From the IMG/VR virus record IMGVR_UViG_2657245124_000006: DNA of 24,063 nt. The stretch is one strand, 5' to 3'. The notes beneath the pieces were generated by a model, which was given only the letters and a program-made list of their open reading frames with translations, was not told where the DNA came from and did not search any database. The DNA comes from a virus (Duplodnaviria > Heunggongvirae > Uroviricota > Caudoviricetes). The position numbers were made by a program, and so were the translations under genes. Below are positions 1 through 14,499 of the stretch, piece after piece (the stretch's first letter is position 1; the number at the start of each line of letters is the position of its first letter).

Positions 1-468
1 TTAATTTAATCGGCTACGATAAAAGTCTCTTGTTATGTTGCGATCGATGACTACTTCACAACGTGCTGAAGGTCTGTAACCCTCACGAGCCTTAATCCAT
101 GGTTCTTCTTTATGAGTCATATCTTCAAGTTGTGCGCCAGAAAAAGCACCGTAGACTTCAAGAACGCCATCAATATGAGCTGCGGTTGCGGCTGGAATGG
201 ATGAAAGATCAAACCCAGGAGTGCGATCTGCAATCGTTATGTCCGAATACAGTGATTTTGTAGAAGAGAACCGGTTATAAATCGCACGGCTTACTGGGCC
301 ATGAATCCAAGCTTGAAACTCCTCATCCACTAACTTTTTATCGAAAAAAGCTAGATACCAAGCATCTGCGTAATAAGCTAATTTTTGCAGCTTCAAATTA
401 GACATAGTTTCACCTGAAGCTAAGATTTTTGTGATGATGTAATCACATAATTGGTTAATATTTATCAT
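1..468 (-). CDS. Panacea-domain (DUF4065) protein, GepA/SocA-like putative antitoxin
   Basis: 155 aa, ATG at 466-468, AGAGGGA ribosome-binding site upstream. The segment 'LKLQKLAYYADAWYLAFFDKKLVDEEFQAWIHGPVSRAIYNRF' matches the DUF4065 signature as I recall it. Stop codon is at window positions 1-3. Confidence 0.7.
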   Translation of the reverse strand: MININQLCDYIITKILASGETMSNLKLQKLAYYADAWYLAFFDKKLVDEEFQAWIHGPVSRAIYNRFSSTKSLYSDITIADRTPGFDLSSIPAATAAHIDGVLEVYGAFSGAQLEDMTHKEEPWIKAREGYRPSARCEVVIDRNITRDFYRSRLN

Positions 469-2048: not shown

Positions 2049-2618
2049 CTATTTAACATACTTGACTGTTAAACTTATAATTTTACCAATTATTTCAATG
2101 TCTTCTATCTTGCATTCGAAGGCTCTGTTTCCACCCTCGACGAAGATTCTTCCACCGGGTAAACGAGTAATGTCACGGATCGTTATTTCGCCATCAATAC
2201 TTATTACCCATTTACCATCACGTATATCATCAAATTCCTTATCACAAATAAATTCAGAATTATTATCTGTGATTACAAAAAGATTCTTGAATGCCGACGG
2301 TAGAAATTCTCTATCGAAAATATAAAAACCGTCTTCACACAAGGCCCCATCAGATAATACATATTTAGCAACTTCCATAGTATTTGTATTACCTGAAGTT
2401 TGCTTTGAACCATGCCCGGTTGTGAGCCAATTAAGCGAGGTGCCTGTTTCAAGGGCGCACTGGATTACCCATTCTGCTGGAAATGAGTCACGCATGTAGC
2501 GTGTGGCGAGTGTACTTTTAGAGATTCCTAAATGATCGCACAACGCCTGTCGAGTCTTGAATCCATAAGCTTCTACCATGCGCTCTATAGCGCCTCGTCC
2601 GCCTTTCTCCAAATTCAT
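2049..2618 (-). CDS. cI: Immunity repressor, phage 186 CI-like (HTH plus C-terminal domain)
   Basis: 189 aa from ATG at 2616-2618 (track start at 2624 is GTG). GGAG ribosome-binding site upstream. HTH segment 'TRQALCDHLGISKSTLATRYMRD'. Sits between int and the divergent apl/cII genes; size matches 186 CI (192 aa). Confidence 0.8.
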   Translation of the reverse strand: MNLEKGGRGAIERMVEAYGFKTRQALCDHLGISKSTLATRYMRDSFPAEWVIQCALETGTSLNWLTTGHGSKQTSGNTNTMEVAKYVLSDGALCEDGFYIFDREFLPSAFKNLFVITDNNSEFICDKEFDDIRDGKWVISIDGEITIRDITRLPGGRIFVEGGNRAFECKIEDIEIIGKIISLTVKYVK

Positions 2619-2997: not shown

Positions 2998-3507
2998 ATG
3001 TTTGATTACCAAGTTTCCAAACATCCACATTTTGATGAATCCTGTCGTGCATTCGCATTGCGCCACAACCTGGTGCAACTGGCAGAACGTGCTGGCATGA
3101 ATGTGCAGATTCTGCGGAACAAGTTGAACCCAGCTCAACCTCATTTATTAACCGCACCAGAAATCTGGCTGCTTACCGATCTGACTGAAGATTCAACGCT
3201 GGTAGATGGTTTTCTGGCTCAGATTCACTGCCTGCCATGCGTACCGATTAATGAGGTGGCAAAAGAGAAACTGCCACATTACGTCATGAGTGCAACCGCA
3301 GAGATCGGGCGTGTTGCTGCAGGTGCGGTATCTGGCGATGTAAAAACCAGTGCAGGTCGTCGTGATGCTATCAGCAGCATTAACTCTGTAACACGACTGA
3401 TGGCGTTGGCTGCTGTTTCATTGCAGGCCCGTTTACAGGCTAACCCTGCGATGGCGAGTGCAGTTGATACCGTGACTGGCCTCGGTGCTTCATTTGGTTT
3501 GCTGTGA
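2998..3507 (+). CDS. cII: CII-type lysogeny-establishment activator (phage 186 CII family)
   Basis: 169 aa from ATG at 2998 ('[24 protein letters not shown]...'). Track start at 2992 is TTG. Length equals 186 CII and the N-terminus matches my recollection of it. Confidence 0.8.
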
Positions 3508-3514
3508 GGTGCTT

Positions 3515-3811
3515 ATGCTGACGAAAGAACCATCATTTGCATCGCTGCTGGTAAAACAAAGCCCGGCAATGCACTACGGTCACGGCTGGATCACGGGTGA
3601 GGATGGAAAACGCTGGCATCCATGTCATTCACAAGATGAATTGCTGTCTGAATTGACCACGAGGAAACGGAGAAAGTCCAAATGTATGCGGCAGAAAGTG
3701 AAGTGGTTTATCAGTTTCGTTACAGAGGGGAGAGTTATTCAGTACCTGAAGATGATTTGCTCTGTTGCTATCCGTCATTGTCGGGCGATGGCAGTTACTT
3801 TTTCACGTTAA
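3515..3811 (+). CDS. Hypothetical early protein (98 aa); C-terminal half doubtful
   Basis: ATG at 3515 with GAGGTG ribosome-binding site just after cII. The last ~45 residues overlap the next ORF in another frame and look less protein-like. Confidence 0.35.
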   Translation: MLTKEPSFASLLVKQSPAMHYGHGWITGEDGKRWHPCHSQDELLSELTTRKRRKSKCMRQKVKWFISFVTEGRVIQYLKMICSVAIRHCRAMAVTFSR

Positions 3812-4571: not shown

Positions 4572-4798
4572 TGGCTGATGCAATGGATCTCGTACAGCAG
4601 CGCGTTGAAGAAGAACGCCAGCGCCATATCCGTGCTGCCCGTGCCAAAACACCGGGCGTGTCTCGCGTGCTTTGTATTGAATGTGAAGCGCCAATTCCGC
4701 CAGCACGCCGCCGCGCCATTCCTGGAGTGCAGCTTTGCATTACCTGCCAGGAAATCGCAGAGCTGAAAGGCAAACATTACAACGGAGGTGCTGTATGA
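4571..4798 (+). CDS. TraR/DksA-family C4 zinc-finger protein
   Basis: 75 aa; 'CIECEAPIPPARRRAIPGVQLCITC' gives C-x2-C-x17-C-x2-C, the TraR/DksA spacing. ATG at 4571. Confidence 0.8.
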   Translation: MADAMDLVQQRVEEERQRHIRAARAKTPGVSRVLCIECEAPIPPARRRAIPGVQLCITCQEIAELKGKHYNGGAV

Positions 4799-5652
4799 GC
4801 ACCATCCTGAAATGGGCGGGTAATAAAACCGCCATTATGTCCGAACTGAAAAAATACCTTCCTGCTGGCCCGCGACTGGTTGAACCTTTCGCGGGTTCTT
4901 GTGCTGTGATGATGGCGACGGATTACCCCAGCTATCTGGTTGCGGATATTAATCCTGATTTAATCAACCTCTATAAAAAGATTGCCGCTGATTGCGAAGC
5001 GTTTATATCTCGTGCCAGAGTTTTATTTGAGGAAGCAAACAGTGAGCTGGCTTATTACAACATAAGACAGGAGTTTAATTACTCAACTGAAATTACTGAT
5101 TTCATGAAGGCGATATATTTCCTGTATCTCAATCGTCACGGTTACCGTGGTTTATGTCGCTATAACAAGAGCGGGCATTTCAACATTCCCTACGGTAATT
5201 ATAAAAATCCGTATTTCCCTGAAAAAGAAATTCGCGCATTTGCAGAGAAAGCCCCGCGGGCAACGTTTATCTGCGCCAGCTTTGATGAAACGCTGGCGAT
5301 GTTGAAGGCGGGGGATGTGGTGTATTGCGATCCGCCGTATGACGGTACGTTTTCCGGCTATCACACTGATGGTTTCACTGAAGATGACCAGTATCACCTG
5401 GCATCCGTTCTTGAACATCGGTCATCAGAAGGTCATCCGGTCATTGTTTCTAACAGTGACACATCCCTGATTCGTTCGCTGTATCGCAATTTCACTCACC
5501 ACTACATCAAGGCAAAACGCAGCATCGGCGTGTCGGCTGGCGAGAGTAAATCTGCAACAGAAATCATTGCTGTTTCCGGGGCGCGCTGCTGGGTGGGATT
5601 TGATCCTTCGCGTGGCGTGGATAGTTCTGCTGTGTACGAGGTGCGTGTATGA
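4795..5652 (+). CDS. dam: DNA adenine N6-methyltransferase, Dam (D12) family
   Basis: 285 aa from ATG at 4795 (GGAGG ribosome-binding site). Motif I-like '[10 protein letters not shown]' and catalytic 'DPPY' ('YCDPPYDGT'). Start overlaps the upstream stop (ATGA); stop overlaps the repA start. Confidence 0.88.
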
Positions 5653-8063
5653 GTCATGCCGATATGAGCGACTCTAGCGGCTTTAACGAGGCCGCTGCAG
5701 CATTTTCATGGAACGGCCCGAAAAAGGCCATAAACCCTTATCTGGACCCGGCGGAAGTTGCGCCGGTTTCTGCGCTTTCAAACCTGATCACTCTGTATGC
5801 TGCCGATAACGAGCAGGAACAGCTGCGCCGCGAGGAATTGAGTGAACAGGTCTGGGAGCGTTATTTCTTTAATGAATCCCGTGATCCTGTCCAGCGCGAA
5901 ATGGAGCAGGATAAGCTCATTAGTCGGGCAAAGCTGGCGCATGAGCAGCAGCGTTTTAACCCGGACATGGTCATTCTGGCGGACGTCAGCGCCCAGCCCA
6001 CCCACATCAGCAAGCCGCTGATGCAACGTATCGAATACTTCAGCAGCCTGGGCAGGCCAAAGGCTTATTCCCGCTATTTGCGTGAGACGATTAAGCCATG
6101 TCTGGAGCGACTGGATTGTGTACGCGACAGTCAGCTATCTACTTCTTTCCGTTTTATGGCAAGCCATCAAGGGCTGGAGGGCCTGCTGATCCTGCCTGAA
6201 ATGAGTCAGGATCAGGTGAAACGCCTGTCCACCCTGGTAGCTGCGCATATGAGCATGTGTCTTGAGGCCGCTTGTGGTGATTTGTATACCAACGATGACG
6301 TAAAGCCAGAAGAAATCCGCAAGACATGGGAAAAGGTGGCAGCGGAAACCCTGCGTCTGGATGTTATCCCGCCTGCGTTTGAGAAACTTCGTCGGAAAAG
6401 AAACCGCCGCAAACCTGTGCCCTATGAACTCATACCGGGTTCGCTGGCACGTATGCTTTGCGCCGACTGGTGGTATCGAAAATTGTGGAAGATGCGTTGC
6501 GAATGGCGGGAAGAGCAGTTGCGTGCTGTCTGTCTGGTCAGCAAAAAAGCATCTCCCTATGTCAGCTATGAAGCCGTGATGCATAAACGTGAGCAGCGCC
6601 GCAAGTCGCTGGAGTTTTTCCGTTCTCATGAACTGGTGAACGAAGACGGAGACACGCTGGATATGGAAGATGTGGTAAACGCCAGCAGCAGCAACCCGGC
6701 ACATCGCCGCAATGAGATGATGGCCTGCGTTAAAGGTCTGGAGCTTATCGCGGAAATGCGCGGTGACTGCGCCGTTTTCTACACCATCACATGTCCGTCA
6801 CGTTTCCATTCCACGCTCAATAACGGCAGGCCCAACCCGACCTGGACAAATGCGACGGTAAGACAAAGCAGCGATTATCTGGTCGGCATGTTTGCTGCAT
6901 TTCGTAAGGCGATGCACAAAACCGGGTTGCGCTGGTATGGCGTACGGGTGGCTGAGCCGCACCATGACGGTACTGTGCACTGGCATCTCATGTGTTTCAT
7001 GCGCAAAAAAGACCGCCGCGCCATTACTGCATTGTTGCGTAAGTTTGCCATCCGTGAAGACCGCGAGGAGCTGGGCAATAACACGGGCCCACGCTTTAAG
7101 TCTGAGCTGATAAACCCACGCAAAGGAACGCCGACAAGCTACATCGCAAAATACATCAGTAAGAACATTGACGGGCGTGGTCTGGCTGGCGAGATCAGCA
7201 AGGAAACGGGTAAATCCCTGCGTGATAACGCCGAATACGTTAATGCCTGGGCGTCTCTGCATCGTGTTCAGCAGTTCCGCTTCTTTGGTATTCCGGGGCG
7301 CCAGGCTTACCGTGAACTGCGATTGCTGGCTGGTCAGGCGGCAAGACAACAGGGTGACAAAAAAGCAGGTGCGCCGGTACTGGATGATCCGCGTCTTGAT
7401 GCCATCCTGGCTGCTGCTGATGCTGGTTGTTTTGCCACCTACATCATGAAGCAGGGCGGCGTACTGGTTCCCCGCAAATATCACCTTATCAGAACAGCTT
7501 ATGAAATTAACGAAGAGCCGACTGCCTATGGCGATCACGGTATTCGTATTTATGGCATCTGGTCACCCATTTCAGAGGGCAAGATCTGCACTCATGCAGT
7601 GAAGTGGAAAATGGTTCGTAAGGCCGTTGACGTTCAGGAGGCGGTAGCCGACCAGGGCGCTTGCGCCCCTTGGACTCGTGGCAATAACTGTCCCCTTGCT
7701 GAAAATTTGTACCAACAAGGGAAAGACAAATCAGCTGATGGGGGCTCCAGAACGGACATTACCCGCATGGATGACAAGGAATTGCACGATTACCTGCACA
7801 GTATGAGCAAAAAAGATCGCCGGGAGCTGGCAGCAAGGTTGCGCTTGGTGAAACCGAAACGGCGTAAAGACTACAAACAGCGAATTACAGATCATCAGCA
7901 TCAGCAGCTCGTCTATGAACTGAAGTCCAGAGGATTTGATGGCAGCGAGAAAGAAGTCGATTTGCTCCTTCGCGGTGGCAGTATTCCGTCAGGAGCAGGC
8001 TTGCGTATCTTCTATCGGAACCAGCGTTTGCGGGAAGATGATAAGTGGCGGAACCTGTATTAA
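5649..8063 (+). CDS. A: Replication initiation protein, P2 gpA-like rolling-circle HUH endonuclease
   Basis: 804 aa. HUH-like 'VHWHLMCF' and two-tyrosine motif '[12 protein letters not shown]'. Position matches P2 gene A. Confidence 0.85.
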
Positions 8064-8155
8064 TTACGCGGGTTAACAATTCGTGCTCTTAATAATACCA
8101 GGCATATCAGGCTGATGAACGTAAAAAAACGTTTTACATCAGTAAGATTATTATA

Positions 8156-8175
8156 TACTGTAAATATAAACAGTG
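8156..8175 (+). promoter_or_regulatory. LexA box (SOS operator)
   Basis: TACTGTAAATATAAACAGTG: CTG-N10-CAG with AT-rich centre, 17/20 match to TACTGTATATATATACAGTA. A TTTACA -35-like hexamer lies just upstream. It is 42 bp before the 8217 start. Confidence 0.65.
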
Positions 8176-8216
8176 GTTATGTATACAGCATTTCTTGTGG
8201 TGTCATAGGAGGAAAG

Positions 8217-8405
8217 ATGCAGGACTATTTTTTGGAGTCTTTGAAGCTCCAGCGCATTGATTTTTTTCTTAAGCTTGTAGCGGCTAGTGAGTGTAGTGAT
8301 GAAGAGAAGGGGCTGGCTTTGCAGTGGGTTTCTGAACTAACAGATGAACTCATGGCAAAAATCAGAACCCACGAATACAACCGCTCAATGGATGTCATCA
8401 GTTGA
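8217..8405 (+). CDS. Small hypothetical protein (62 aa), first gene of the SOS module
   Basis: ATG at 8217 with GGAGGAAAG ribosome-binding site. The track ORF from 8115 would read through the promoter and LexA box. Confidence 0.5.
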   Translation: MQDYFLESLKLQRIDFFLKLVAASECSDEEKGLALQWVSELTDELMAKIRTHEYNRSMDVIS

Positions 8406-8415
8406 GGTGACTTTT

Positions 8416-8649
8416 ATGCGCATTGAAATAATGATCGATAAAGAGCAGAAGATTAGCCAGTCTATCCTGGACGCCCTTGAATCCGAGCTTTACCGCAATC
8501 TGCGCCCCCTGTATCCCAAAACGGTAATTCGTATCCGCAAAGGTAGCTCTAACGGTGTGGAACTGACCGGACTGCAACTGGACGAAGAAAGAAAACAAGT
8601 GATGAAAATTATGCAGAAGGTGTGGGAAGACGACAGCTGGCTGCATTAA
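8416..8649 (+). CDS. dinI: DinI-family protein
   Basis: 77 aa from ATG at 8416 (GAGGTGA ribosome-binding site). 'MRIEIMIDKEQ...LDALESEL...ERKQVMKIMQKVWEDDSWLH' aligns with E. coli DinI as recalled ('MRIEVTIAK...IDALAGEL...DKQRISEILQETWESADDW'). Confidence 0.85.
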   Translation: MRIEIMIDKEQKISQSILDALESELYRNLRPLYPKTVIRIRKGSSNGVELTGLQLDEERKQVMKIMQKVWEDDSWLH

Positions 8650-8651
8650 GA

Positions 8652-8694
8652 AACGTTGCTGGCGTCTGAACTTGCTTCTGACGTCAGCAACGTT
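8652..8694. terminator. Strong hairpin after dinI; possible bidirectional terminator
   Basis: Arms AACGTTGCTGGCGTC and GACGTCAGCAACGTT form a 15-bp stem with one G.U pair and a 13-nt loop. No clean U-tract on the + strand; a short TCTT follows on the - strand. Confidence 0.4.
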
Positions 8695-8915
8695 GAACAA
8701 CTAGTTTAGTGGGGCATTAGTCATGGGGTAAAATACAGTAACCATTATTTTCACTTCCGCTCAGATTTAACCGAACGTTAGTTTTGCTACGTATGATGGG
8801 CTGCAAATTACCTTTTGGGATTTGTGATAGATACGAAAATCCTATTAGATGCTTGTTAGACCGGAAGCGCCACTTCGAACGAAAAGTAATGGCCACTTAT
8901 GCCGGTTTAAAAGCC

Positions 8916-9446
8916 TTAACCTTGTATAGTTATTTGAATATTTTCTTCATTGACACCAAAGTATAGGGCTAGCCCTGCTTTTGCCTCCTGAAGTGTTAAC
9001 GGCTTAACTACATTTTCTTCTTCTTCTTCGTACTCATCACCCGCTTGATCGACAATCGAATTAGTCGGGGTTAATTTTGGAAGAGCTTTAAATTCCAACT
9101 TGTCAGCCTCAATGCCAATGTCTTTGAGGTTGCGATAAGAAACGGGATTCCGATTGCCATCCCATTGTCCTGGGATGTCAATTTCAGCATAAGAATTGAT
9201 GTTTATGATCCAGCGTTTAGGGTTTTCTGGAGCCCTGCTTACTCCCGAGATTCGACCGATCATAAAAGCATGATGATGTTTTGCTTCTTGTGATCCCCAG
9301 TCCTTTCTCGAATTTTGTACACAAACTAAATATTCGTGCTTAGCTGCATGGCTGGCGTCAAGTCTCCATGCTTGGCTTCCCCCTGTGTTCAAAATCTCTG
9401 TTAAACCACGAGCAGTAAGTACAGTAATACAGTTGGTAGTAGCCAT
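8916..9446 (-). CDS. Uncharacterised 176-aa protein, cargo gene at the phage right end
   Basis: ATG at 9444-9446, no competing frame, AT-rich. Acidic patch 'DEYEEEEEN'. I recognise no family. Transcribed divergently from the OLD-like gene. Confidence 0.6.
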   Translation of the reverse strand: MATTNCITVLTARGLTEILNTGGSQAWRLDASHAAKHEYLVCVQNSRKDWGSQEAKHHHAFMIGRISGVSRAPENPKRWIININSYAEIDIPGQWDGNRNPVSYRNLKDIGIEADKLEFKALPKLTPTNSIVDQAGDEYEEEEENVVKPLTLQEAKAGLALYFGVNEENIQITIQG

Positions 9447-9916: not shown

Positions 9917-9982
9917 AATAATGCAAATTATTGAGTCCCATTAGTTCAAAACTTAGGGATATCTTATGTGAAAGGAGGTTAT

Positions 9983-11668
9983 ATGTTAGATAAATTGATT
10001 TTTAATTCAGGAAGTAATCCAACATCTAAATCTTCATTATCGGTTGACTTGACTCCATTGACAATTTTTGTGGGGCCGAATAATAGTGGTAAATCTAGAG
10101 CTTTAATCGATATAGAAAATCAACTGACAACCCGAAATGCAGCGCAGGGAGAAGTAATAAAACAGATATTAATCAAACCACTTTCTGAGGATGAAGCAAA
10201 AAAGGAAATTGAATCTTTACAAGTTGAGCCAAACCAGGATGAAAAGCATGCGGGGCATGTTGTTTTATCTAGGCTAAACCTCCGTGGTGAAGGAATATCT
10301 AGGATTCTAGTGTATTTGGATGGAATGTTAAGAGAATTCCAGCAACCCAATGAATTCAATCGGGAGCATCTATATCAATATTACTCGTTGCTGACTCTAA
10401 GGTTGGATGGTAGAAGTCGACTTTCCTTAACTTCAAGTCAAGGTTCATCCGATTTACAAGGAGAACCTACGAATAACCTTTCATTTCTTTTTAAAAATAA
10501 TAAAGCAAGGATGGAGCTAAGAGATATCGTTTTTGATGCTTTCGGGAAGTATCTTGTTATTGATCCAACAAATATAGGTTATCTTAGAATTCGTCTTTCT
10601 GAGCGCGCTCCTGAGACTGAACAAGAAGAAAGAGGTTGGGATGAAAAGTCAGTGCTTTTTCATTCAAAAGCGTCATTGATTACAGAGGCTAGCGATGGTG
10701 TTAATGCTTTTGTTGGGATGATGATTTCGCTGATAGTTGGCTCACCAAAGGTGACTCTAATTGATGAGCCGGAAGCTTTTTTACATCCATCCTTATGCTC
10801 AAAGTTAGGAAAGGAAATATCTAGGATTAGTGCTCATAGTAATAAAAATGTGTTTATTTCAACGCATAGCGCTAATTTTTTAATGGGTTGTGTTCAAGGT
10901 AAAGTGCCATTGAATATAGTTAGGCTTACTTTTGATGGTAAATCTGGTACGTCTAGATTACTAACAAAGGAACAATTGACGCCGCTCATGAGAAATCCGT
11001 TATTAAGATCTATTGGTGTGCTAAACGCATTGTTTTATAATTACGTTGTCGTTACTGAAGCGGATGCAGATAGGGCATTTTATCAAGAGATTAATGAGCG
11101 CTTATTGGCTGCTGGAGATCCTCGGGGTATTGAGGGATGCCTGTTTTTGAATGCTCAAAACAAACAAACTGTTTGGGATATAGTAAAACCCCTTCGTGAG
11201 CTAGGTATTCCCTGCGTTGGAGTGGTAGATATCGATATATTGAAGGAGGGAGGAGTTGTATGGAAAAAACCAATGCTTGGAGCTTTTTTTCCAGAAATGA
11301 AGCATGAAACTTTAGGTTTGGAAAGACAAAAGCTTTTTCAAGCCTTCAAAAATACGAATAAAAATATGAAGACAGATGGGGGCCTCTCCTTGTTATCGGG
11401 TTCAGATAAAACCGCCTGCTCTGAGTTTTTTAAATCCCTTTCAGATTATGGGGTTTTTGTCGTTCCAACGGGCGAGATCGAGTCTTGGTTGCAAAATCTT
11501 GAAATAGGTCGAGGAAAGAATACTTGGTTAACAAGTATTTTCGAGAAGATGGGGGATGATCCTAATGATGAATCATATGTGAAGCCATCTGAAGGTGATG
11601 TTTGGGATTTTATTGGGAATATAAAGCACTGGTTGGTTAACCCTGAAAGGAAGGGTATTCCCGAGTGA
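9983..11668 (+). CDS. OLD-family / AbiL-like predicted nuclease (ABC-type ATPase plus C-terminal Toprim-like domain)
   Basis: 561 aa from ATG at 9983 (AGGAGG ribosome-binding site; track start at 9968 is GTG). Walker A 'GPNNSGKS', Walker B/D-loop 'VTLIDEPEAFLHPS', H-loop-like 'ISTHSAN'. C-terminal 'VVVTEADAD' and 'VGVVDIDIL' fit a Toprim E...DxD pattern. Very AT-rich. Confidence 0.8.
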   Translation: MLDKLIFNSGSNPTSKSSLSVDLTPLTIFVGPNNSGKSRALIDIENQLTTRNAAQGEVIKQILIKPLSEDEAKKEIESLQVEPNQDEKHAGHVVLSRLNLRGEGISRILVYLDGMLREFQQPNEFNREHLYQYYSLLTLRLDGRSRLSLTSSQGSSDLQGEPTNNLSFLFKNNKARMELRDIVFDAFGKYLVIDPTNIGYLRIRLSERAPETEQEERGWDEKSVLFHSKASLITEASDGVNAFVGMMISLIVGSPKVTLIDEPEAFLHPSLCSKLGKEISRISAHSNKNVFISTHSANFLMGCVQGKVPLNIVRLTFDGKSGTSRLLTKEQLTPLMRNPLLRSIGVLNALFYNYVVVTEADADRAFYQEINERLLAAGDPRGIEGCLFLNAQNKQTVWDIVKPLRELGIPCVGVVDIDILKEGGVVWKKPMLGAFFPEMKHETLGLERQKLFQAFKNTNKNMKTDGGLSLLSGSDKTACSEFFKSLSDYGVFVVPTGEIESWLQNLEIGRGKNTWLTSIFEKMGDDPNDESYVKPSEGDVWDFIGNIKHWLVNPERKGIPE

Positions 11669-11704: not shown

Positions 11705-12733
11705 CTATGCAAGGTTATATTCATTAAATTGCATTATTGGCTCCTTTATCCATTCATTTACTTCTTGAAGCCTTTTTTGCAATGGAATTAGCTCATTACG
11801 GACAAAGACCCTGCTGGCTTTCTCCACATCCCCAAATCCCCCGACATTATTTGGCATTATCCCCATCATTTGTGGCGGCACACGATGCGCAGCCATCATG
11901 TCATCCCGGCTCACGTTCTTGATATTCAGAAACTCATCCTTCGCCGCGACTTCTGACAACGGGATGATCTGAAGCCCGTCCTTTTTGCCGTTAGGCGAGT
12001 ACATAAACAGGTTGCGGAAGTTGCCAGGGCCTTTGGCGCTTTTCATCGCATTGCGGAGGTTGTTCACATCCTCCTGGTTCTGCGCGGCATCGGTCATGTA
12101 CATGATGAAGCCTGCATGACTGCCGTTAATGTAATACTTCCGGCGGAACAGCGTGGCGGACTCGTTGAGCAGGGCTGACGGAATGGCAGAAAGATAACCT
12201 GGCAGGCCGTAGATCTCCTGGTTGATGTCAGGTTCCATCAGATGAAAAATGCTGCCTTTCGTGAACTGATACGGCTGGGTTGTCATACCGTATTGCACAA
12301 ACCAGTAGGTATCCAGGTCTAACCCGCGTCGGGTGTATTTTGCCAGCGCAGGCTCAAGGGCTATAACTTCACCGAATCGGTTCGTGCGTTTCTCCAGGTA
12401 GGCGTTACCAAATACCAGATAGTCCTGCACAAAACGCGAAAAAGCCTGTTGGCTGAGCAGCGGATGAGGGATATAGGTACTGGTCAGAATGTTGCACTTT
12501 ACTGCAATCGGGGAACTGTGATGCACGGCAGCCCGGAAGGTGCGCGCCAGTCCGTCAAAACTTACGGGTGGCTCATACCAGCGATCCGTCTGTACGCATT
12601 CTACATAGTCCAGCAGTTCGCGGCGGTCCAGTACAGGAATGGGATCACCAAAGCTGAAAGCTTCGGCTGAAGTTTGATTTTTATGCTGGCTCCGTTTCGT
12701 CGCAGCAGCGCGGTTTTTCTTACTCTTTCCCAT
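11705..12733 (-). CDS. Q: Portal protein, P2 gpQ-like
   Basis: 342 aa from ATG at 12731-12733 (track start is TTG). Same size and position as P2 Q. Start overlaps the P stop. Confidence 0.9.
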   Translation of the reverse strand: MGKSKKNRAAATKRSQHKNQTSAEAFSFGDPIPVLDRRELLDYVECVQTDRWYEPPVSFDGLARTFRAAVHHSSPIAVKCNILTSTYIPHPLLSQQAFSRFVQDYLVFGNAYLEKRTNRFGEVIALEPALAKYTRRGLDLDTYWFVQYGMTTQPYQFTKGSIFHLMEPDINQEIYGLPGYLSAIPSALLNESATLFRRKYYINGSHAGFIMYMTDAAQNQEDVNNLRNAMKSAKGPGNFRNLFMYSPNGKKDGLQIIPLSEVAAKDEFLNIKNVSRDDMMAAHRVPPQMMGIMPNNVGGFGDVEKASRVFVRNELIPLQKRLQEVNEWIKEPIMQFNEYNLA

Positions 12734-14499
12734 CAAAAAATCTCCACAATATTGCTGGTATTGGCGGACTCGCCCTGCAGCGGTTCGTTAAACAGTGCGT
12801 GCATTGTTGCCCAGGCCAGATCGGCGTGGCTGGCTTCTTCGCTGCGGCTAGCTTCATAGGTCGGGCGGTTGCCGCTGGCGGTGGTGGCGCGACGGATTGC
12901 CATGAATGACTGCGCAATGTCGGTGTGCCCGGCGTCAAACTCCAGACGGCGGTGGCTGATAATGTCGTAGGCCTTGAGTACCAGGGCGTTTTTAACGTTG
13001 GGGTTGTAGACAAACTCCCGGACGGCAGGAAAGAACGCTTTCACGTTCTCATAAACCCCGTGACCGACGCCTGTCGAGTCGATGCCGATATAGGTCACGT
13101 TGTACTGCTCGGTCAGTTTTTTGATTGCATCAGCCTGGGCGCGGAAGTCCATCCCGCGCCACTGGTGACGCTCAAGAATGCGAAACTTACCGCCTGGCAC
13201 GGCTGGCGGTGCCACCACCACGCATCCGGCGCTGTCGCCATTCTGCGTACCTTTTGCCGGGTCATAACCGATCCACACCTCGCGCCAGCCAAACGGGCGC
13301 AGGGCCAGTGCATGAAAGTCGGTCCAGACTTCCCAACTGTCCACCATGCACGCCTGCAGCTCGCTGAGCGGAAACACGGATGCGAGATCGTCCACAAACT
13401 CGCACATCAGCAGGTTCTGGTATTCGTCCGGGCTGTACTCCATGCGTAGCTGGTCGAGGTCGAACAGGTTACAGCCGCCGCGCACCGCATCTTCCACGGT
13501 GACTATCTGGCGGTATTGCCCGTCTGCGCACAGCAGGCCGGGGGCCAGATTGCTGTGGGACAGGTCGATGTCCACCTTATCGGCTTTGTTGCGCCCACGG
13601 TTGAACAGCGCACCGGACCAGAACGGATAAGCACTGTGTGTCAGACTGGATGGCGTGGAAAAATAGGTTTGTCGCCATTTTTTGTGAATAGCCATACCGG
13701 AAGCCACTTTGCGCAGCTCCTGGAATTTCGGTATCCAGAAATATTCATCCAGATACAGGTTGCCGTGGTAACTCTGGGCCGTGCGGGCATTGGTGCCGAG
13801 GAAGTAAAGCGTGGCCCCGTTAGGAAGCACCATCGGATCGCCTTTCAGCTCCACCTCCACTTCTTTGGCAAAGTCGATGATGTACTGTTTAAAGACGTGG
13901 GCCTGAGCCTTGCTGGCAGAAAGGAAAATCTGGTTACGCCCGGTCAGCAGGGCGTCAATCAGGGCTTCACGGGCAAAGTAAAAGGTCGCGCCGATCTGGC
14001 GTGACTTCAGCAGGTTGCGGATGCGGTTGGTTTTTCCGGCTTCCCACCAGTGGCGCTGGTAGTTGAACATAGAGGAATGGAAGATTTCTTCCAGTTTCTC
14101 AATCTGTTCATCGGTGAAAACATTCTTTTCCGGCTGACGACGTGGGCCTTTGTTGCGGTTGGCAACGTTAGGGTTTAAGTCGGCTTCGTTGCCGCCATTG
14201 TTAAACTTGCCGATCCGCGCGTGGCGCTCAGACTGGCGTGCCAGCAGGTCAATTTCTTTGAAATCTTTCCCTTCTTTGTGCTCCTTCATAATGAGCTGGC
14301 AGTAGCGTGCGGCGGTGGTGAGCTGCATCTGATCCAGCGGCCCATAGTCACCCCACTTGTCGCGTTTTTTCCAGCTGTGAACGGTTGCAACTTTCTCGCC
14401 CAGCATTTCAGCAATGCGGGCGACGCGGTATCCCTGAAAGTACAGCAGCATGGCCTGCCGACGGGGATCGAGATCTGCGGGTGTCAGTGTGGTGTTCAT
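12733..14499 (-). CDS. P: Terminase large (ATPase) subunit, P2 gpP-like
   Basis: 588 aa, ATG at 14497-14499. Divergent from O as in P2. Confidence 0.9.
   Translation of the reverse strand: MNTTLTPADLDPRRQAMLLYFQGYRVARIAEMLGEKVATVHSWKKRDKWGDYGPLDQMQLTTAARYCQLIMKEHKEGKDFKEIDLLARQSERHARIGKFNNGGNEADLNPNVANRNKGPRRQPEKNVFTDEQIEKLEEIFHSSMFNYQRHWWEAGKTNRIRNLLKSRQIGATFYFAREALIDALLTGRNQIFLSASKAQAHVFKQYIIDFAKEVEVELKGDPMVLPNGATLYFLGTNARTAQSYHGNLYLDEYFWIPKFQELRKVASGMAIHKKWRQTYFSTPSSLTHSAYPFWSGALFNRGRNKADKVDIDLSHSNLAPGLLCADGQYRQIVTVEDAVRGGCNLFDLDQLRMEYSPDEYQNLLMCEFVDDLASVFPLSELQACMVDSWEVWTDFHALALRPFGWREVWIGYDPAKGTQNGDSAGCVVVAPPAVPGGKFRILERHQWRGMDFRAQADAIKKLTEQYNVTYIGIDSTGVGHGVYENVKAFFPAVREFVYNPNVKNALVLKAYDIISHRRLEFDAGHTDIAQSFMAIRRATTASGNRPTYEASRSEEASHADLAWATMHALFNEPLQGESANTSNIVEIF

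Follow-up and report, generated by a model that had tools for sequence, protein, structure and literature searches.

The window, by which we mean the whole stretch of 24,063 nucleotides that was analyzed, is a P2-family prophage in an E. coli chromosome, with 100% identity to strain 1297KP, and the stretch was matched in 1,332 of 5,426 complete E. coli genomes. Directly of interest is a short module 3′ of replication gene A (5649-8063; Phage_GPA E = 6.5e-128), consisting of a LexA-boxed promoter, a gene for a 62-aa protein, and a gene for a DinI-like protein (Table 1). A preliminary description of this DNA had already read a 62-aa ORF followed by a DinI-family gene downstream of a replication gene. 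That order was borne out, and the span it gave for the module, 8156-8649, was accurate, with slight corrections to the coordinates of single elements.

The same description had drawn a comparison with 186-type prophages, and the CI repressor, an Apl-like gene, CII, and gene A all agree with a prophage of this type. The CI of the window, labeled "phage repressor protein CI" in RefSeq, has the same domain architecture as 186 CI. The rest of the 186-type switch is also present, namely a Cox/Apl-like gene and a CII that is 68% identical to 186 CII. Against the Peptidase_S24 model, CI scored 16.3 bits, below the cut-off of 23.3, and it appears to be without a recognizable self-cleavage (LexA-like S24) domain. 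A DNA adenine methylase gene (4735-5652, + strand) lies directly 5′ of gene A and overlaps it. Fels-2 has the same arrangement, with the gene annotated as similar to the methylase of retron Ec67, and in 186 the place is taken by another gene, annotated as PAPS reductase.

Table 1. Features of the SOS module and of the loci compared with it. Positions are those of the window, except for L025, whose own positions are given.
Feature	Position	Strand	Basis or remark
CI repressor, 189 aa, presumed TumA target	2049..2618	-	Phage_CI_repr 2.8e-33, Phage_CI_C 2.7e-27
tumA promoter, -35 hexamer TTTACA (186 p95 is the counterpart)	8133..8138	+	by inspection
-10 hexamer TACTGT, the left arm of LexA box 1	8156..8161	+	17-nt spacer after the -35
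LexA box 1, TACTGTAAATATAAACAGTG	8156..8175	.	17/20 to consensus
LexA box 2, CAGTGGTTATGTATACAGCA, predicted	8171..8190	.	14/20; 5-nt overlap with box 1
tumA ribosome-binding site AGGAGG	8207..8212	+	sequence; AGGAGG kept in related loci
tumA-like gene, 62 aa, predicted CI antirepressor (phrog_698)	8217..8405	+	ATG 8217, stop 8403-8405
dinI-like ribosome-binding site GAGGTG	8404..8409	+	sequence; overlaps the tumA stop codon
tumB (DinI-like) gene, 77 aa	8416..8649	+	Pfam DinI (PF06183) E = 1.3e-22
Strong hairpin closing the module, T-run absent after it	8652..8694	+	MFE fold of 8640-8715
L025, CI and tumA	CI ~3204-3725; tumA 10001-10186		186-like CI, 62% identity to CIs that occur with 186-type Tum

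The operator was examined in the window and in related loci. No CTGT-N8-ACAG other than the one in TACTGTAAATATAAACAGTG occurs in the 24 kb window, and no other 20-mer there comes within three mismatches of the consensus TACTGTATATATATACAGTA; 100 shuffles gave no such match. The proposal that a near-consensus LexA box overlaps the promoter was correct, as this box covers the -10 hexamer. What did not stand was the idea of a single box, because a second, overlapping one follows at 8171-8190. Only three 20-mers on the + strand of the window score at least 14/20, and they include box 1 (17) and box 2 (14). Among 33 genome loci, drawn from many genera of enterobacteria, 31 have a CTG-N10-CAG box 5′ of the tumA orthologue; of the two loci that lack it, one is cut by the end of the contig and the other is a frameshifted copy. 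The second box recurs at an offset of +15 in 102 of 114 related loci with a TumA of the window type, whereas all 81 loci with a 186-type Tum have a single LexA box. Judged from its sequence, the tumA operator is of the colicin style, with two LexA boxes that overlap, and LexA is predicted to bind both. This difference between the two types predicts a late, tightly locked SOS switch for the window type, with all-or-none induction as in the colicins.

The promoter layout agrees with that of phage 186. TACTGT is the annotated -10 of 186 p95 and lies within the LexA site there as well, and a -35 of TTTACA or TTTCAC is kept at an equal distance in related loci. A second candidate for the -10, TATACT at 8154-8159 with a 15-nt spacer, could serve instead. 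A generic sigma-70 promoter scan of the window did not call the tumA promoter because its -10, TACTGT, matches only 3 of the 6 positions of TATAAT.

The 62-aa protein belongs to phrog_698, a family of unknown function (E = 3.6e-38). It has 484 homologues at E ≤ 0.01, almost all of them unnamed. RefSeq labels it "hypothetical protein" and the protein after it "DinI-like family protein." It is covered by no Pfam, NCBIfam, or PADLOC model, and a sequence search of the PDB with it gave no match. In some phage and UniRef records, the family is named "levan regulatory (domain) protein." We found no support for this name here, and it looks like a propagated misannotation. When the gene was compared with 31 related loci, pN/pS was 0.00-0.29, and synonymous divergence, leaving out two nearly identical loci, was 0.43-0.79. 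These values point to a real gene under strong purifying selection. An AlphaFold2 model of the protein (mean pLDDT 90) is a helical hairpin with helices at residues 2-23 and 28-61 and a conserved Cys26 in the turn. A Foldseek search of the PDB with this model returned only generic helical hairpins, none at E ≤ 0.001, so the fold is functionally uninformative.

Only 10 nt separate the tumA stop codon from the dinI ATG. The DinI-like protein scored 80.4 bits against the Pfam gathering score of 24.2 and belongs to the DinI family. Against the NCBIfam equivalog NF007893, it scored 42 bits, with a cut-off of 111. By these scores it is a phage DinI-like paralogue and not the chromosomal E. coli DinI. 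It matches phrog_189 (2.6e-29) at profile positions 71-148 of 151 and is 41% identical to residues 71-145 of 186 Tum. Among solved structures, DinI 1ghh and 7ywa are related to it only distantly. From its family, TumB most likely modulates RecA filament activity and hence the strength or duration of the SOS signal, in line with the effect on RecA that the preliminary description had proposed.

The module is followed by a strong hairpin at 8652-8694, after the dinI stop codon, built of a 15-bp stem with a 3-bp stem above it. Folding of 8640-8715, which includes the hairpin, gave an energy of -33.7 kcal/mol (z = -5.4). Related sequence lies directly 3′ of tumA in three loci without dinI (L013, L023, and L036). 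The hairpin is probably a terminator or a transcript-stabilizing stem. Whether as a terminator or as the boundary of a recombination event, it seems to be where the module ends on its 3′ side. The promoter scan also flagged a smaller, terminator-like hairpin at 8394-8411, GTCATCAGTTGAGGTGAC followed by TTTTAT, which reaches from the stop codon of tumA into the ribosome-binding site of dinI. This hairpin is common to Fels-2 and locus L004. Since it is not conserved in most other loci, we treated it as probably incidental; it could lower dinI translation. An Rfam search of the window found no known RNA.

Some neighboring genes were recorded as well. A cargo island lies between the dinI-like gene and the portal gene (11705-12736, - strand), at about the position where P2 carries old. 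It holds a 175-aa ORF (8916-9446, - strand; phrog_37247, of unknown function, with no Pfam or PADLOC match) and, at 9968-11668 on the + strand, a gene for a 566-aa protein with an OLD-family ATPase and a TOPRIM nuclease. The latter matches PADLOC "Old" at 1.3e-20 and Pfam AAA_15, AAA_21, and OLD-like_TOPRIM, and is an "ATP-dependent nuclease" in RefSeq. The OLD-like gene is probably an anti-phage defense insert. Just outside the integrase, RefSeq has a Panacea-domain protein with an adjacent hypothetical protein (window 1-468, - strand, and the flanking chromosome, 1241-2469 in locus L038). These two genes lie beside rcdA at the edge of the prophage and may form a toxin-antitoxin pair of the PanA type.

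The relationship of the 62-aa protein to Tum is visible at the profile level. Tum of 186 (146 aa) has an N-terminal part followed by a C-terminal DinI domain. When PHROG profiles were used, residues 1-70 of 186 Tum matched phrog_698 (5.9e-6), phrog_8554 (3.4e-12), and phrog_1993 (1.5e-23), and the 62-aa protein matched phrog_8554 (2.4e-8) and phrog_1993, the family of PSP3 TumA (2.2e-3). An hhalign comparison of the two family alignments aligned columns 1-44 with columns 1-44 in register at E = 6.5e-4. The probability was only 27.5% because both family alignments hold little diversity. By eye, a motif C-x7-AL-x-[LW]-[IV]-[AS]-[ED]-[IL] is common to 186 Tum, PSP3 TumA, and the window protein. 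Pairwise BLASTP gave no similarity between the 62-aa protein and either 186 Tum or PSP3 TumA, and no match between PSP3 TumA and 186 Tum. The 62-aa protein thus appears to be homologous to the N-terminal half of 186 Tum, at the profile level only and with modest statistics. The features of a tum or tumA gene were also found around it: a LexA-boxed promoter, a position after gene A in a prophage with the CI/Apl/CII switch, and a DinI-like gene directly 3′.

The closest known relative of the module is in Fels-2, and the comparison with it covers the part of the locus that does not reach cI. STM2728 of Fels-2 is 98.4% identical to the 62-aa protein, with one residue different, and its DinI-like protein, STM2726.1, is 99% identical to that of the window. 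Box 1 of the Fels-2 operator is identical to box 1 of the window, box 2 lies at an equal offset, and the module occupies the same position after gene A. The two prophages differ in host, which is Salmonella for Fels-2 and E. coli here, and in the cargo downstream, which is a 243-aa ORF in Fels-2 and the 175-aa ORF with the OLD-like nuclease in the window. A tum homologue of Fels-2 reportedly made lexA null mutations lethal in Salmonella.

PSP3 also has two genes after gene A behind a LexA box. In its record, a DinI-like tumB comes after tumA, which is described as "similar to 5′ end 186 tum; UV induction of prophage." PSP3 TumB is 77% identical to the window DinI protein (tblastn), and PSP3 tumA encodes 60 aa compared with 62 aa here. 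PSP3 differs in that its TumA falls in another PHROG family (phrog_1993) and in having a single LexA box at -40. The tum gene of Fels-2 and PSP3 has been described as split in two by a stop codon, with the antirepressor activity encoded by the upstream gene in PSP3 (Lemire et al. 2011; PMC3121763). The sources that Lemire et al. give for this are Bunny, Liu and Roth 2002 and G. E. Christie (personal communication), and it is only as the latter communication that the antirepressor role of PSP3 TumA has entered the literature (via PMC3121763). A literature text search for TumA/TumB returned only unrelated papers. A paper on the Salmonella SOS regulon makes no mention of Fels-2, and the strain used there appears to lack it.

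In the 186 record, Tum is expressed from the LexA-repressed p95 after gene A. Induction of 186 starts when SOS de-represses p95 and Tum inactivates CI, and it is reversible once LexA returns (PMC7708051). The window resembles 186 in its LexA-repressed promoter with the -10 inside the box and in its CI/Apl/CII switch. In contrast to the window, which has separate genes and a double box, 186 has one 146-aa polypeptide and a single box. A likeness in logic extends to Gifsy GfoA/GftA and N15 AntC, in which a small LexA-repressed antirepressor acts against a non-cleavable repressor, and the Gifsy prophages have a dinI homologue in the antirepressor operon.

The operator itself has its nearest look-alikes elsewhere. 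Colicin promoters on small mobilizable plasmids are 83-85% identical to window positions 8150-8196, and the stretch of pColR that aligns is the operator in front of the colicin R gene. Like the window, the colicin operators have a box offset of 15 nt and a second box starting with CAGTGG; the two pColR boxes score 15/20 and 14/20. The colicin double operator is bound by two LexA dimers, which results in very tight repression, no detectable basal expression, and delayed induction (PMC2994835, PMC4482635). The colicin operators control a toxin, whereas the operator in the window controls a putative prophage antirepressor gene. The resemblance may be due to convergence under the constraints of LexA binding and not to common descent.

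Taken together, the region is very probably the SOS-induction operon of a 186/Fels-2-type P2-family prophage in its split tumA-tumB form. The suggestion that the 62-aa protein is a candidate LexA-controlled antirepressor of the Tum kind is thus supported by the profile homology and by the literature on PSP3 and Fels-2. The module has already been described in the relatives Fels-2 and PSP3 and is not new; it is under-annotated in databases. The double-box operator, the optional nature of dinI, and the pairing of one TumA with many CIs are additions of the present analysis.

The best account of the E. coli copy is that it works like the switch of 186, Fels-2, and PSP3, as its homology, position, and regulation suggest. 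In an undamaged cell, LexA would sit on the two overlapping boxes, over the -10 and the region of the transcription start, and keep the promoter shut. Sustained DNA damage would lead to RecA-stimulated cleavage of LexA, and tumA and tumB would be transcribed together. The TumA helical hairpin would then bind CI and stop it from binding its operators. With CI sequestered, the lytic promoter would fire and the prophage would be induced. TumB, the counterpart of the C-terminal half of 186 Tum and of the shortest product that 186 tum yields from an internal start, would be dispensable for the core switch.

One possible objection is that the 62-aa protein is SOS-induced but acts on a target other than CI, such as RecA, cell division, or replication, and that CI is inactivated in another way. 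The variation of the two proteins gives this some support. Across 27 loci, median pairwise identity was 82% for TumA and 43% for CI, and the two identities did not covary (Spearman rho 0.02). The missing covariation counts against a strictly cognate TumA-CI pair, since such a pair would be expected to co-vary. In addition, an identical 62-aa TumA is paired with 16 CI clusters that are mutually less than 70% identical, the lowest pairwise identity being 33%. Nevertheless, we consider a target other than CI improbable. Profiles relate the protein to the N-terminal half of Tum, a proven antirepressor, its position and regulation are the same, and the upstream gene of PSP3 is the one reported as antirepressor (Lemire et al., PMC3121763). 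A CI with no above-threshold S24 domain would need an antirepressor. Finally, the CIs paired with the window TumA keep a motif in the N-terminal domain that is a possible shared docking site.

This motif was found by comparing CI sequences. The median identity of CI over the 27 loci was 65% in the helix-turn-helix half of the N-terminal domain and 34% in the C-terminal domain. CIs that occur with a window-type TumA keep S-[KQ]-S-T-[LM]-A-[NT]-R-Y-x-R-D-x-F-P-A-[ED]-W, and those that occur with a 186-type Tum mostly have A-S-S-S-L-x-N-R-Y-T-R-G-x-I-S-Y-D-F. Viewed more coarsely, CI and Tum type were associated, in that none of the 34 CI clusters contained both Tum types. The sole exception to this pairing is locus L025 (Pantoea stewartii ATCC 8199), in which a 186-like CI accompanies a window-type TumA. 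This locus is a natural test case for whether the type of TumA must match the type of CI. The common motif across CI clusters that share one TumA hints at the helix-turn-helix half of the CI N-terminal domain as the docking site of TumA, and such docking would fit an antirepressor that blocks DNA binding. Because shared phage ancestry could give the same pattern, we offer the docking site as a hypothesis. We also observed CIs of 308-318 aa beside an identical TumA in eight loci (L123, L135, L140, L155, L159, L170, L182, and L194). In most of them, the N-terminal helix-turn-helix motif is visible twice, as in the 286-aa CI of PSP3 (L003).

It is less likely still that the active inducer is the DinI-like protein, with the 62-aa protein as an accessory or chaperone. 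In 186, the DinI domain and the antirepressor are on one polypeptide, and a DinI-like gene is present in most loci, as this explanation would have it. The 186-type N-terminal domain is fused to DinI in 79 of the 81 loci sampled, and the window-type tumA is split from dinI in 99 loci of the 114-locus sample. In 13 other loci of that sample, however, tumA is kept and dinI is missing. Where upstream DNA of dinI-less loci was examined, the LexA box was also kept, which makes tumA the constant core. On this comparison, dinI appears optional, and tumA with its LexA operator appears to be the constant part of the module. Moreover, the 186 record describes the DinI-only products that arise from internal starts in tum as modulators of SOS induction and not as the antirepressor, and in PSP3 the activity was reported for the upstream gene (PMC3121763). 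That either the ORF or the LexA box arose by chance and has no function, as the shortness of the ORF, its "hypothetical" label, and the negative promoter scan might suggest, can be dismissed as refuted by the comparative data, namely the low pN/pS with synonymous sites near saturation in diverged loci, the many homologues, and a box that never arose in shuffles and is conserved across genera.

With CI as the presumed target, the loose pairing of TumA and CI allows a more speculative reading of the Fels-2-type TumA, to which we give rather less than even credence. It could be a generalist antirepressor, held under a double LexA lock, expressed late and in severe SOS, and docking on the conserved helix-turn-helix half of CI. 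If this were true, TumA could switch on P2-family prophages with many CI variants, co-resident ones included, and the Tum family would match the subtype of the CI N-terminal domain rather than the whole CI.

The module described here would govern the timing of exit from the chromosome for a prophage that is very common in E. coli. If the name tumA were moved to the 62-aa family, a small gene that is very widespread would be correctly annotated. The occurrence of one TumA sequence with many CI variants provides a testable idea of where the antirepressor binds, and the pairing of TumA and CI also makes one ask if heterologous prophages of the P2 family could induce one another.
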